In this document: in pieces, positions 53,127 to 54,663 of the stretch
How positions within the stretch are numbered: the stretch's first letter is position 1
Layout of the letters: each line of letters opens with the position of its first letter
From: Escherichia phage MirsaeidiM_Esher1
Strand: one strand, 5' to 3'
Length of the DNA: 64,000 nucleotides
Sequence record: PQ438048.1
Made by a program: the position numbers and the translations under genes
The notes under the pieces: model-generated
What the model was told of the DNA's origin: nothing
The model's input: only the letters and a program-made list of their open reading frames with translations
The model's database searches: none

Positions 53127-54663
53127 GATAATCTCCTCTCATCGTTAGCCATCTTTCATGGCAATCATCAGTTACCAACATCATACAATCAATCTCAGGG
53201 AATTACAATCGAATTATCATAGGGGATTCCTATCAATTATCCCATATATACTGATTATTTTTGACACCACACTCTTGTATAAAAAGTAACCCAAAATATC
53301 TACGGGGAGAGATTATTTCGGGACACCCTGTTTCATGGCAATCATGGCAAGAATATCTAATAGAATCAATATGATATGGCAAAAATCATGGCGCATACGT
53401 AAGAAGTGCTTAACGCGAATTTTCGGGCCGTCAGGTCCACGCAGCGACAATTCCCAAATATCATGCGAATGAGAATAATTATCATTCGTATTCAATGACT
53501 TATGCAAGGCTCATGCCAACATAGCGACAAGGTGGGCCACCTGATTATAAATCACACAAACACTTATTTATCAATGGCTTGGCAACTTCATCATATGACG
53601 GAACAATGTCAACTAATGCCGCTCATGACAAGCAGACTATTATTTATATGAGAATGATTATTATTTAAACGTTTATTAACATAAAAACTAAAATAAATCA
53701 AGAATTTTCTGATTTTATTTACGTTTAAGAGAAGATGCTCAACATATCGCGTAGCGATAGTATTCGCCCCCAAAATTATTGACTTTTATTCTATTATGTG
53801 CATAGTGTGCAATGTATCGGAATGATGATAATCATCCTCCCATTGCCCCCATAATTATTGCCATGCTAATTGTTTCCTTATGTAATTATTACAATGATTA
53901 TTGTTATTGCGTTAATGTTATGATCTTGGTAATTACATATAATGCTAATAATAAGCCAGCGCAATAAGTGTAAGCGTCATTACGCTTGCAATTATTGCAA
54001 GCTACGCAGTAACAAGAAATAACCATCACCGATGGTTATGATTGTTGGGGTGTAGTTGGCTTATTATTAGCTCGCTATGTGTCCGGCATAGCGTGCTAAT
54101 GATGACTCTGTGAATGATTCGTTTTGTAATGATTTCATTCAGGCACTATTTTGCTAATAGTTATTATTTTAATGGTTTCGTTTGTTATTGTTCGTTAGTT
54201 GGTTGTTTTGTCGTGTTATCGTTATTTTGCTTAGTATTCATCATGGTTTGATTGTTTGTCGTTATCAATCATCTTGCTATTATTCCTTTGATTATAATTA
54301 GTTTGCTTATTGTTTTAGGTTGTTTGTTGGTTAGTTGTTGCGAACTATTATCAACATTATAATTATGCGCTTATATTGCATAGATAATCATGGGTAGATG
54401 ATAATGGTTATCATTGCACTAGAAAGGAGGTAAAAGGGTGTTTTTGATGGTTTGTTGTTGGTTGTTGATCGATTTTAACCGCTCTAAATAGCTCTCTAAC
54501 AGCCTGTTACCCTGGGATGTATGGTTATTCGTTTAATGGTCGATTAGCTCGATACCGCGATTTATTCAGTTTTGCTCTGTGTCGGTTTTTCATAGGCGAA
54601 AGCTATCAACATTATTCAGGCAAAAAGAAAGGGCGCTCGGTGCGCCCCTTGTTTTGTTGTCGA
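53127..54663. other. about 1.5 kb AT-rich non-coding region with palindromes, ATTATT-type iterons and a duplicated TTTCATGGCAATCAT motif
   Basis: Only one weak 64-aa ORF on track; palindromes TTGCAATTATTGCAA, AAGCGT-CATT-ACGCTT, AACCATC-ACC-GATGGTT, ATGATAA-TGG-TTATCAT; plus-strand micro-ORF 54438-54491 with AAAGGAGG. Confidence 0.55.
54625..54650 (-). terminator. rho-independent terminator for the 54664-55083 gene
   Basis: Minus-sense GGGGCGCACCGAGCGCCC hairpin then TTTCTTTTT. Confidence 0.65.

Follow-up and report, generated by a model that had tools for sequence, protein, structure and literature searches.

Genomic setting and sequence composition

The window, that is, the whole stretch of 64,000 nucleotides analysed here from Escherichia phage MirsaeidiM_Esher1 (PQ438048.1), matched 89 phage records, with Phapecoctavirus genomes at 94-97% identity, and judged by its sequence it is itself a Phapecoctavirus genome (phAPEC8-like, Stephanstirmvirinae). 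Positions 53127-54663 lie between two minus-strand genes, the left one at 52782-53126 with its start codon at 53126 and the right one at 54664-55083 with its stop at 54664, for which a Pfam search gave no match and PHROG matches were exclusively to families of unknown function. These flanks correspond to gene 1 and to the last gene, 294, of Schickermooser, and sequence comparison places them at the two extremities of the linear map, the left one as its first gene and the right one as its last; the gene order across the junction is syntenic in every relative examined, across genera. Within the window as a whole, a single ORF of at least 380 aa is found (17190-19436) and the Rfam threshold is reached by tRNAs alone, at 7-788; a tRNA and tmRNA search of 53127-54663 returned none.

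The initial annotation had described the locus as a gene-free, repeat-rich and AT-rich gap separating two compositionally different gene blocks. This description was borne out by the absence of any conserved ORF and by the enrichment of palindromes and ATTATT repeats, the AT-richness being real but slight (GC 35.7% vs 38.6% for the whole window). Computed in 1-kb bins, the composition step is present but modest, with a GC of 0.385 in the left block (taken as 37.5-53.1 kb) and 0.409 in the right block (p=0.011), a difference of 2.3 points, and it is clearer in AT skew (-0.027 in the left block vs -0.115 in the right one, p=0.001). In every gene block of the window, the sense strand is the one with positive GC skew, and within the gap GC skew turns from negative to positive exactly at a structured element hereafter called block A (53944-54093).

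Regarding the repeats, the perfect palindromes first seen by eye were recovered at 53986-54000 (TTGCAATTATTGCAA), 53972-53987, 54021-54037 and 54398-54414. Altogether, 53127-54663 contains 18 inverted repeats that are perfect over arms of 6 nt or more, compared with 4.8 +/- 2.7 in shuffles and with a mean of 7.6 (maximum 20) in chunks of the same size elsewhere in the window. The ATTATT-type repeats amount to 14 copies (9.1/kb), the density elsewhere being 1.0/kb and shuffles giving 2.0 +/- 1.5, and they are strand-biased, AATAAT being present in just 2 copies in the region. The GC-rich hairpins that had been attributed to the right-hand genes are found there as well, GGGCGC-N5-GCGCCC occurring three times (54628, 55192 and 60620), always on the right side.

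Coding potential

No credible ORF had been recognized in the gap, and the comparison with related phages confirms this view. The longest ORF inside it encodes 64 aa, and none of the 12 ORFs tested, the micro-ORF among them, survives in all relatives, each being interrupted somewhere by a frameshift or premature stop or lacking its start or stop codon. Apart from 54579-54737, they are already disrupted in both phiWec181 and PsgM04F, which are relatives of ~79% identity. Both flanking genes are intact in the relatives where these ORFs break, and a conserved protein-coding gene across the region was sought in related phages and not found, all 12 ORFs being broken. The plus-strand micro-ORF pointed out earlier (VFLMVCCWLLIDFNRSK, 54438-54491) does exist, together with its RBS (AAAGGAGG at 54423-54430), but it is not a conserved gene. 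Indeed, its start codon is missing in phiWec181 and its stop is missing in phAPEC8, and neither the micro-ORF nor its SD was found in Justusliebigvirus; it was thus rejected as a gene.

The terminal repeat and its left flank

The leader or upstream region of the first left-end gene (gene start 53126) occupies 53127-53410 on the minus strand, where weak sigma70-like sites are predicted and a 24-bp tandem repeat is found at 53197-53241. The conserved core of this leader, GTATATATGGGATAATTGATAGG (minus strand, 53229-53251), is kept across genera, and the identity to Justusliebigvirus muut over 53091-53302 is 88%. The idea that GTATATATGGGATAATTGATAGG is a repeated phage promoter was rejected, since it is single in the window and differs from the early promoters (TTGACA-N16-TAATAT) of the phAPEC8 annotation. 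The motif TTTCATGGCAATCAT, reported as repeated about 180 bp apart, is present at 53154-53168 and 53331-53345 with a spacing of 177 bp; on the minus strand it reads ATGATTGCCATGAAA, with TCATGGCAA occurring three times. This motif is kept only in close relatives and in muut and is absent from phiWec181, PsgM04F, inny and phi92, so that it was discarded as a conserved regulatory element and is lineage-specific.

Next to the leader, a direct terminal repeat (DTR) of 328/329 bp is located at 53411-53739, as a single copy in the window. The ends of the Schickermooser and Mt1B1_P17 records are exact duplications of 329 bp and 328 bp, respectively, both mapping to 53411/12-53739, and the annotated 343-bp DTR of phi92 (FR775895.2), whose DTR-L is identical to its DTR-R, aligns to the same positions. 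At least 10 further records start or stop within 1 nt of 53411/12 and others do so at 53739/40, among them 3A1_SA_NWU, which ends at 53740, such database termini being derived mostly from read-pileup software. DTRs are general in Stephanstirmvirinae (PMC12695924), with a length of 328 bp in Schickermooser (PMC6563267) and of 342 bp, as determined by PhageTerm, in BME3 (PMC12210895). The repeats of phi92, Schickermooser and BME3 share with the one described here homologous sequence, length class, boundary bases and the pair of first and last genes that flank it, and we noted no substantive difference, the repeat being present once in the window. The termini of the window are transferred by homology from these relatives. 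Its one repeat copy is accounted for by a collapsed or permuted assembly, and virion DNA would carry both ends; the duplicated ends can therefore be demonstrated in the relatives and not from the window itself. Among the roles proposed initially, that of a packaging or terminus-related region is hence the one that holds, with the genome ends and the DTR placed at 53411/12-53739 by relatives, and this terminus role is already known from related phages.

Both edges of the repeat carry a common motif, purine-rich...TGCT/YAAC (the slash marks the putative cut). The left boundary reads AGAAG-TGCT/TAAC (53407-53414, cut between 53410 and 53411) and the right one AGAAGATGCT/CAAC (53736-53743, cut between 53739 and 53740), and the phi92 boundaries are GAGAGGTGCT/TAAC at the homologous left site and AGTAGGCT/CAAC on the right. 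The motif is short, with a shuffle test that is only marginal, at p=0.05 in the window and 0.2 in phi92, two genera that are not independent of each other.

Two Fur-box-like palindromes are found on the plus strand within the DTR, namely GAGAATAATTATCATT (53471-53486), which sits in one of two stretches of the DTR that are kept across genera, and GAGAATGATTATTATT (53650-53665), whose phi92 homologue is GATAATGATTATCATT. A third palindrome, ATGATAATGGTTATCAT (54398-54414), lies over the -10 and the start of a predicted promoter further to the right, that of block C (see below), and matches the Fur box at 15/19. The DTR copies of this GAGAAT...ATCATT motif were rejected as promoters, as they have no conserved -35, and for this reason they look like putative binding sites. 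With a threshold of at least 13/19 matches to the Fur consensus, 13 sites are counted in 1.5 kb, compared with 0.88/kb elsewhere and 0.96 in shuffles. Set against the E. coli Fur box (GATAATGATAATCATTATC), the palindromes reach 14-15/19 matches at conserved positions, and the one at 54400 overlaps a -10 in the same way as boxes do at Fur-repressed promoters. Unlike Fur operators, two of the copies are without promoter, and the sites could equally serve a phage protein; the similarity to Fur boxes in AT-rich DNA may also be coincidental.

A conserved fold and a candidate transcript on the right-end side

To its right, the DTR adjoins a hypervariable spacer (53740-53943), with an identity of 47-71% even to phAPEC8. 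The spacer contains GCCCCCAWAATTATTG at 53766-53781 and 53845-53860, exactly 2 copies in the window vs 0.04 expected, and this sequence is inverted in Justusliebigvirus. A promoter scan gave candidate divergent promoters in the spacer, for instance TTGACT-16-CATAGT on the plus strand (53779-53806). Owing to the hypervariability of the spacer, no conserved promoter could be defined upstream of block A.

Block A itself, a structured element of 150 nt predicted by RNAalifold on the plus strand (53944-54093), is separated from the edge of the DTR by 205 bp here and by 252 bp in phi92, and in the phi92 orientation it falls on the side of the right end. Its 14-bp closing helix P1 (53944-57/54058-71) encloses two arms, P2-P3 (P2 53961-65/53994-98; P3 53969-76/53983-90) and P4-P5 (P4 54000-07/54050-57; P5 54019-27/54031-39), and is followed on its 3' side by a hairpin, P6 (54073-80/54086-93). 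The element holds three of the four palindromes discussed above, and what had been listed as separate palindromes are mostly arms of one multi-helix fold.

Block A is a strand-specific conserved fold with extensive covariation. In a model-fitted alignment of 24 sequences (A6), which represent only ~5 independent lineages, 13 of 51 pairs show double changes (0 of 500 shuffles), pairing is kept in 99.9% of cells (93.4% when shuffled and 23-55% in slid controls), and the covariation score reaches 0.213 vs 0.093; a MAFFT-based alignment of 16 sequences (A4) gave 9 covarying pairs. When both strands were compared, the plus strand had 105 G.U cells and 1 mismatch and the minus strand 0 G.U and 106 mismatches. 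The MFE is -76.8 kcal/mol (z -9.1), the plus-strand fold being more stable than the minus-strand one by 16 kcal/mol. All wobbles on the plus strand, a more stable plus-strand fold and the GC-skew flip thus designate the plus strand as the sense strand. Folding with DNA parameters gives the same structure (z -9.2), so that a structure formed by single-stranded DNA has to be considered; the folded element is probably an RNA.

The covariance model built on block A scores 132-193 bits in all Stephanstirmvirinae-type loci. In Vequintavirinae, where an analogous architecture is present, a homologue was rejected on the basis of scores of only 14-21 bits. With Rfam 15 (4227 models, including pRNA, GOLLD, ROOL, 6S, tRNA-like and phage sRNAs), the region stays below the gathering thresholds, and permissive E-values yielded three chance-level matches, of 15-20 bits against thresholds of 39-50. 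Searches of E. coli and other bacterial genomes for a host mimic, a prophage or a target found no homology to the region. A pseudoknot involving the P5 loop and the junctions was discarded, the loops, aligned and compared by eye, showing no consistent complementarity across lineages. The folded element is new with regard to the databases and papers searched, with no Rfam family and no bacterial counterpart.

Conservation extends over a right-end non-coding module of 0.9 kb, which is more conserved across genera than the adjoining gene, the latter failing to align. This module is 86-98% identical to the ~79%-identity relatives, vs 40-86% for the DTR and the left genes; it has no annotation in the records examined and nothing was found on it in the papers searched. 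A T/G-rich, C-poor tract (54105-54375; T 51%, G 18% and C 10.7% on the plus strand) keeps its C-depletion across genera but not its sequence. In Justusliebigvirus, the tract is almost entirely A/T/G and starts with 16-bp tandem repeats that vary in number and are annotated as repeat_region in muut and inny.

At the end of the tract, a sigma70-type promoter is predicted on the plus strand, TTGCAT-18-GATAAT (54376-54405, with the -35 at 54376-81 and the -10 at 54400-05). Across the five lineages compared (Phapecoctavirus, Justusliebigvirus, phi1_175008, Av-05 and TH18), its -35 is invariant or near-invariant (CTGCAT in one lineage) and its spacer variable, with a -10 of the form G/A-A-T/G-A-A/T-T that is conserved together with the start region. 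Block C follows on the same strand (54412-54627), as a sequence-conserved non-coding segment, with for example GATTAGCTCGATACCGCGATTTATTCA and the hairpin ATAG-GCGAAAG-CTAT, and its last 113 nt have 76-80% identity even in Vequintavirinae (Av-05, TH18). No conserved reading frame was found in block C in the relatives compared, and it was rejected as a structured RNA (z -1.2, few covarying pairs); it is a candidate transcript of ~240 nt, running from promoter to terminator.

The terminator hairpin, GGGCGC-TCGGT-GCGCCC (54628-54650), can be read on both strands and provides a T-run for the converging minus-strand gene. In that direction, its 9-bp stem is followed by CTTTTTGCC, an arrangement invariant in all lineages. 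On the plus strand, a T-rich tail (CTTGTTTTGTTG; CTTGTTTTGT) is found in Phapecoctavirus only, the Justusliebigvirus terminator being without a good plus-strand T-run. The terminator is annotated in phAPEC8 and Schickermooser. Concerning transcription or non-coding RNAs of these phages, neither literature nor expression data were found, in a search that was partly too broad to inform. The cluster of small RNAs envisaged in the initial annotation is accordingly only partly plausible: one strand-specific fold and one promoter-to-terminator unit are what the region contains.

Comparison with known systems

The junction of T7 reportedly combines a short terminal repeat with arrays of short repeats, and its right-end inverted repeat and promoter are said to be needed for concatemer processing. 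The region described here resembles it by a DTR of a few hundred bp with one copy per junction, by repeat-rich non-coding DNA on both sides, by a promoter in the right-end non-coding DNA and by inverted repeats ~200 bp inboard of the right-end repeat. The two have no sequence similarity, and they differ in several respects. The conserved promoter is directed here away from the repeat and not into it, the inverted repeats make up a covarying, strand-specific, multi-helix fold instead of one palindrome, and identical cut-site motifs are seen on both repeat edges, a feature which, to our knowledge, has not been described for T7. Moreover, we know of no phage RNA polymerase in the large myovirus considered here.

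By analogy only, block A may also be compared with the pRNA of phi29, a structured RNA of ~120-170 nt with a multi-helix junction, located near a linear genome end. The region has no match to the Rfam pRNA model, phi29 relies on protein-primed replication and has no DTR, and among loop sequences compared by eye no loop-loop complementarity consistent across lineages was found for a pRNA-type ring. Closer to the present phage, the 'non-coding' box of the rV5 map and the large ORF-free regions of Av-05 and TH18 are syntenic with the region. Block C, the promoter, the palindrome and the terminator recur in Av-05 and TH18 at 76-80% identity, and a closing helix with three arms is found there where block A sits; this Vequintavirinae fold differs by its sequence and by its low score (14-21 bits) with the block A model.

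Discussion

We consider it very probable that the region is the junction of both physical ends of a linear phAPEC8-like chromosome, in an assembly that was circularly closed or permuted. The contrast in GC (38.5% vs 40.9%) and in AT skew could alternatively be ascribed to horizontal acquisition of DNA, with the region as the border of blocks that differ in origin, as the initial annotation had proposed, all the more so as the left block is mosaic, with parts ~46% identical even to phAPEC8 (92-98% for the right block), and mostly unalignable to phiWec181 and PsgM04F. As a primary explanation, such a boundary is very unlikely: the blocks are opposite ends of one linear chromosome, syntenic across genera, the GC gap is merely 2.3 points and the junction falls exactly at the terminal repeat. 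Mosaicism of terminal early-gene blocks is common among phages, and it would leave the conserved non-coding module unexplained. That the stretch hides a protein-coding gene, whether read in a different frame, encoding a small protein or represented by the micro-ORF, is extremely unlikely. Several ORFs of 41-64 aa do exist besides the 17-aa micro-ORF and its AAAGGAGG, and automated annotation of ETEC-TG, EP57 and PsgM04F places 7-9 small CDS in this stretch; however, each tested ORF is broken in at least one relative in which the flanking genes are whole, indels within conserved parts are not multiples of three, conservation tracks base-pairing and not codon periodicity, and curated records carry no annotation in the stretch.

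The two other readings concern the function of the DNA at the junction. A replication origin, where an initiator would attach to the repeats and palindromes and a transcript might serve as primer, is rather unlikely. The region is slightly AT-rich and strongly enriched in short repeats and palindromes, a palindromic site of 16 bp is present in three or four copies, and its promoter adjoins a strand-biased tract; Justusliebigvirus has in addition copy-number-variable 16-bp tandem repeats directly after block A, but these iteron-like repeats occur in that genus only. In rV5, skew analysis gave no origin elsewhere and skew changes were ascribed to transcription direction (PMC3606486). Here too, skew changes coincide with changes in transcription direction, and the DnaA box TTATNCACA is absent from the region, its 4 occurrences elsewhere in the window being at chance level, so that the origin suggested initially found no specific support. 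A U-rich RNA over the T/G tract would furthermore form weak RNA:DNA hybrids, poorly suited to R-loop priming, and nothing distinguishes an origin here from packaging or regulatory DNA, although it could coexist with the terminus. Finally, block A could act as single-stranded DNA, either by fold-back or hairpin priming for repeat duplication or as a strand-specific priming or loading site, which on balance we regard as unlikely. Its location close to the DTR (205 bp away here, 252 bp in phi92), on the side of the right end, would suit such a role, T7 reportedly having an inverted repeat in a similar place, left of the concatemer junction; the structure is recovered under DNA parameters (z -9.2), DNA tolerates G.T wobbles and scans did not pin down an upstream promoter. 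However, a simple palindrome would be enough for hairpin priming, whereas the long-range helix of 14 bp and the two composite arms inside it, whose loops and junctions are conserved, are typical of RNA. Likewise, the GC-skew flip and the C-poor next 600 nt suit a transcribed sense strand, a promoter and a terminator are conserved downstream on the same strand, and 5'->3' resection starting at the adjacent end would be expected to bare the opposite strand.

Returning to the junction of the chromosome ends, replication would lead to concatemers with one DTR per junction, and the terminase or an associated nuclease would recognize TGCT/YAAC at each DTR edge, the repeat being duplicated during cutting and packaging in the manner proposed for T7-type short-DTR phages. 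The interval ~53944-54655 would be transcribed on the plus strand into one or two non-coding RNAs, with the block A fold as the 5' domain and a 3' part which, at least from TTGCAT-18-GATAAT onwards, would stop at the shared terminator. The C-depleted strand would let such an untranslated RNA escape Rho, and the RNA might help in cis in end processing or replication, or be a trans-acting regulator. The GAGAATrATTATCATT sites, two in the DTR and the third on the block C promoter, may all be targets of a single protein, which would be the host Fur or a factor of the phage. More speculatively, and with a likelihood that we consider low, block A, perhaps together with the C-poor tract and block C, could represent a new class of phage structured non-coding RNA, transcribed from the DNA directly inboard of the terminal repeat and involved in the processing of chromosome ends in a large DTR myovirus, with an architecture conserved from Stephanstirmvirinae to some Vequintavirinae. 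By analogy with the phi29 pRNA or the ColE1 RNA II, it could recruit or position the packaging and terminase machinery, or prime or organize replication at the junction.

Once the gap is understood as the place of the chromosome ends, the correct start and orientation follow for this genome and for many Phapecoctavirus records deposited as permuted or 'circular', and spurious small CDS calls can be removed. The TGCT/YAAC edges provide a concrete candidate cut site in a group of phages widely used in therapy cocktails, and block A is a well-supported new structured nucleic-acid motif, present in considerably more than 100 phage genomes. Should the Fur-box-like sites be real, they would tie the terminal region to the iron status of the host. 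If block A is an RNA that acts at the genome ends, an RNA component would be added to DTR-type packaging or replication; if it is an RNA acting in trans, it would count as a new non-coding gene, early or terminal, in a major lineage of coliphages.

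A terminal repeat within the non-coding gap

The non-coding stretch at window 53127-54663, which runs from the start codon (53126) of one minus-strand gene to the stop codon (54664) of another, matches 89 phage records and is 94-97% identical to Escherichia phages of the genus Phapecoctavirus (phAPEC8, ESCO13, Schickermooser, tuntematon and others; Stephanstirmvirinae), its phAPEC8 counterpart being an unannotated gap from gp17 to gp18. The initial annotation had seen no credible ORF here, and we reached the same conclusion: the longest has at most 64 aa and all 12 ORFs tested are disrupted in at least one relative (11 of them already in phiWec181 and PsgM04F alike, both relatives of ~79% identity), both flanking genes being intact. 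A hidden gene was hence rejected, and no conserved protein-coding gene was found across the region. The micro-ORF with a strong ribosome-binding site does exist but was rejected as a gene, its AAAGGAGG included: the sister genus Justusliebigvirus has neither, and close relatives carry broken versions.

Judging from the relatives, from which the termini are carried over, the region comprises the chromosome ends of a linear phage genome. Indeed, numerous independent GenBank records start or stop within it at identical bases: ends fall at window 53411/12 for Schickermooser, BI-EHEC, Mt1B1_P17, WPEC1/2/4/6 and dw-ec, ~10 nt or less from there for KKP 3954 and vB_EcoM_01, and at 53740 for 3A1_SA_NWU. 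Comparison of both record ends gave exact duplications of 329 bp in Schickermooser and 328 bp in Mt1B1_P17, both mapping to 53411/12-53739, and a 328-bp terminal repeat has been described for Schickermooser (Korf et al. 2019, PMC6563267). In phi92 (Justusliebigvirus), the annotated left and right direct terminal repeats (DTRs), 343 bp long and mutually identical, align to this same interval and are followed by ~1.1 kb of non-coding DNA and then by the last gene. The DTR of BME3 is 342 bp by PhageTerm (PMC12210895), and DTRs are described as general in the subfamily Stephanstirmvirinae (PMC12695924). Among the roles initially proposed, a packaging or terminus-related one is thus borne out by the record ends and terminal duplications of relatives. 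The window holds a single copy of the repeat, so its assembly is collapsed or permuted.

The left DTR edge, 53410/53411, reads AGAAG-TGCT/TAAC and the right edge, 53739/53740, AGAAGATGCT/CAAC (slashes mark the edges); those of phi92 read GAGAGGTGCT/TAAC and AGTAGGCT/CAAC. The shared motif TGCT/YAAC is short and marginal in a shuffle test (p=0.05), and sits exactly at four ends defined experimentally or computationally. One nuclease specificity would cut both edges, the repeat being duplicated while the concatemer is processed, by analogy with T7-type phages, for which repeat duplication during concatemer processing has been proposed.

On the linear map deduced from relatives, the gene block from 53126 downwards holds the first genes (genes 1, 2 etc. 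of Schickermooser) and that from 54664 upwards the last ones; the two differ in character because they are opposite parts of that map. The composition step guessed by eye between them was recovered by computation and is small (GC 38.5% left, 40.9% right; p=0.011), the contrast in AT skew being clearer (p=0.001); the gap itself is AT-rich as claimed, only slightly so (GC 35.7% against 38.6%). A boundary of horizontally acquired DNA had also been suggested. Because gene order here is shared across genera, with the terminal repeat as the junction, transfer is not the primary explanation; mosaicism among relatives concerns the left-end gene block. A replication origin could coexist with the terminus, but the region contains no DnaA boxes and skew changes track transcription.

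Several observations concern the neighbouring genes. The first two at the left end (window 52421-53126; 114 and 123 aa) are paralogues of one another, both in PHROG 2510 (unknown function); the second has ~46% DNA identity to phAPEC8 over 52500-52700, making the left-end block mosaic. The last gene (54664-55083) forms a monocistronic unit whose promoter is close to consensus (TTGACA-17-TATATT, 55157->55129). The GC-rich hairpins noticed on the right are terminators of the form GGGCGC-N5-GCGCCC (AAAGGGCGC-N5-GCGCCC; 54628-54650, 55192-55214 and 60620-60642), present within the window exclusively in the right-end gene block. At window 7-91 (minus strand), the Rfam tRNA model gives a fourth tRNA (39 bits) that ARAGORN does not call, beside the three that it finds at 222-788. 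Over the non-coding region, MG065650 (Campylobacter phage B15), OR584014 (Pseudomonas phage PsgM04F) and OP562383 (Acinetobacter phage ABPW7) share 83-94% identity with E. coli phapecoctaviruses; their host labels may reflect misattribution or contaminating coliphages.

Leader, repeat interior and spacer

Regarding the left part, the first left-end gene has its leader at 53127-53410, which includes a core conserved across genera and weak promoter-like sites. Within this leader lies the TTTCATGGCAATCAT repeat, confirmed at 53154 and 53331 and restricted to the lineage. The ATTATT repeats of the region are likewise real: they are enriched 9-fold and favour one strand (14 copies, the complement having 2). 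Two DTR segments are conserved across genera (53455-53503 and 53649-53747), each with one palindromic GAGAATrATTATCATT site. Just outside the DTR, the spacer at 53740-53943 is hypervariable (47-71% identity to phAPEC8), even between close relatives. It carries two copies of GCCCCCAWAATTATTG (53766-53781 and 53845-53860); their orientation is reversed in Justusliebigvirus (phi92 locus, 378-419), which makes them a candidate protein-binding site tolerating inversion.

A conserved module at the right end

The remainder, 53944-54663, shows 86-98% identity to relatives in which the DTR reaches just 40-86%. At ~70-80% it remains alignable with Justusliebigvirus, Citrobacter phage Tr1 and Klebsiella phage phi1_175008, to which the adjacent gene no longer aligns. 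Even in the Vequintavirinae Av-05 and TH18 the last 113 nt of this part can be recognised, bordering an ORF-free gap of 1.6-1.9 kb; an ORF-free 'non-coding' box has been depicted for rV5 (PMC3606486).

The four palindromes initially reported are all present (53972-87, 53986-54000, 54021-37 and 54398-54414). The region has 18 perfect inverted repeats whose arms measure 6 nt or more (4.8 +/- 2.7 in shuffles). Across 16 aligned copies from about five lineages, the first three of the palindromes are arms of one fold, block A (53944-54093), and not separate hairpins: a 14-bp closing helix P1 (GCTAATAATAAGCC/GGCTTATTATTAGC) encloses arms P2-P3 and P4-P5, and hairpin P6 follows. In a MAFFT alignment, 99.9% of cells are paired (23-54% in slid controls), nine pairs show compensatory double changes (equalled by 1 of 500 shuffles) and the covariation score reaches 0.184, shuffles giving 0.084. 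With 24 sequences, 13 pairs covary (0/500 shuffles), six of them in P5, in an alignment that is model-fitted and covers few lineages. A covariance model recovers full-length copies (132-193 bits) at every Stephanstirmvirinae-type locus, IMG/VR and metagenome contigs included; no Rfam family matches block A, and neither the genomes of 185,579 bacterial and archaeal species nor those of E. coli contain anything like it. The plus strand has 105 G.U cells and one mismatch, and the same pairs on the complement no G.U and 106 mismatches, so the fold is strand-specific; its folding energy is -76.8 kcal/mol (z -9.1), versus -60.9 for the complement.

In Justusliebigvirus the P3 loop contains an additional hairpin of 9 bp, and in Av-05 an analogous arm likewise has hairpins inserted in its apical loop. 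TH18 (locus positions 2020-2195) and Av-05 (same region) follow a plan like that of block A in a different sequence, at a syntenic site upstream of a recognisable block C; their version has a ~20-bp closing helix round three arms (z about -7). The segments GCTAAT/ATTAGC/GCTAAT (53944-53949, 54066-54071, 54095-54100) would allow the outer 5 bp of P1 to extend P6 instead, the two pairings being mutually exclusive; all three are invariant, so covariation is silent for or against such a switch. ATTAGCTCG recurs within block C, at 54543-54551.

Block C (54412-54627) follows a plus-strand promoter (TTGCAT 54376-81, 18 nt, GATAAT 54400-05) with an invariant -35, an unconserved spacer and a conserved -10 over five lineages, Vequintavirinae included, a classic promoter signature. 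The fourth palindrome, ATGATAATGGTTATCAT, overlaps the -10 and start region and is a third copy of the twofold site of the DTR. These GAGAATrATTATCATT sites match the E. coli Fur consensus at 14-15 of 19 positions and are ~10-fold enriched in the terminal region; the phi92 site GATAATGATTATCATT has 15 matches among the first 16. Fur-box-like sites lie at 53465-53489, 53650-53668, 53818-53839 and 54394-54418, and in relatives at 57, 252, 1133 and 1191 (phi92) and 2301 and 2361 (Av-05/TH18 loci), two positions inside the DTR and one on the block C -10 being kept across genera. Only the block C copy is accompanied by a -35, so the DTR copies resemble binding sites, not promoters; host Fur or a phage protein could bind them. 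The putative ~240-nt transcript (54412 to ~54655) is conserved in sequence, unremarkable in structure (z -1.2) and devoid of any reading frame conserved among relatives.

Other repeats accompany the module. Directly after block A, Justusliebigvirus carries ~2-5 tandem copies, variable in number, of the 16-bp unit TGTATGAAATGATTAC (muut locus 2590-2651, inny locus 2153-2199, columns 16-100 of alignment A2), annotated only as 'repeat_region'; at this place Phapecoctavirus shows no more than a pair of dispersed AATGATT copies. Justusliebigvirus genomes also hold, in a different intergenic region, a second block-C-like module, GCTCTAAATAG...TAACAGC followed by a GGGCGC-N5-GCGCCC terminator (muut 4210-4410, inny 3777-3959), which in phiWec187 is a ~300-nt insertion (locus ~2270-2560); the window has a single such module.

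Transcript or single-stranded DNA

Block A is probably a plus-strand RNA, a reading with several points on either side. The complexity of the fold and its wobble asymmetry point to RNA, as does GC skew, which is negative through left genes, DTR and spacer and turns positive exactly at block A, up to the terminator (+0.12, +0.26, +0.22), positive skew marking the sense strand in every gene block of the window. Downstream, a conserved promoter and terminator lie on the same strand, and the next 270 nt are C-poor (10.7%), a composition that would let an untranslated RNA escape Rho. However, no conserved promoter is definable upstream of block A, the plus-strand terminator tail is good in Phapecoctavirus only, and DNA parameters predict an identical fold. 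The last point and the missing upstream promoter would also suit single-stranded DNA, for example a fold-back intermediate in repeat duplication comparable to the T7 right-end inverted repeat; set against fold complexity, skew flip, downstream signals and C-poor tract, we regard this rival as live but rather unlikely. That a plus-strand RNA takes part in end processing, packaging or replication seems unlikely. The suggested cluster of small RNAs thus survives as one strand-specific covarying fold and one promoter-terminator unit; we found no expression data on the region.

Concluding remarks

The right-end non-coding module, with its covarying, strand-specific block A fold, appears to be new, as do the conserved unit of promoter, palindrome and 3' block, the palindromic sites shared with the DTR and the common TGCT/YAAC edges; the function of the module we infer. 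The identity of the terminus is already documented for close relatives and is hence an ordinary answer to the gap. It is nonetheless useful for annotation, many records being permuted or bearing spurious small CDS here.
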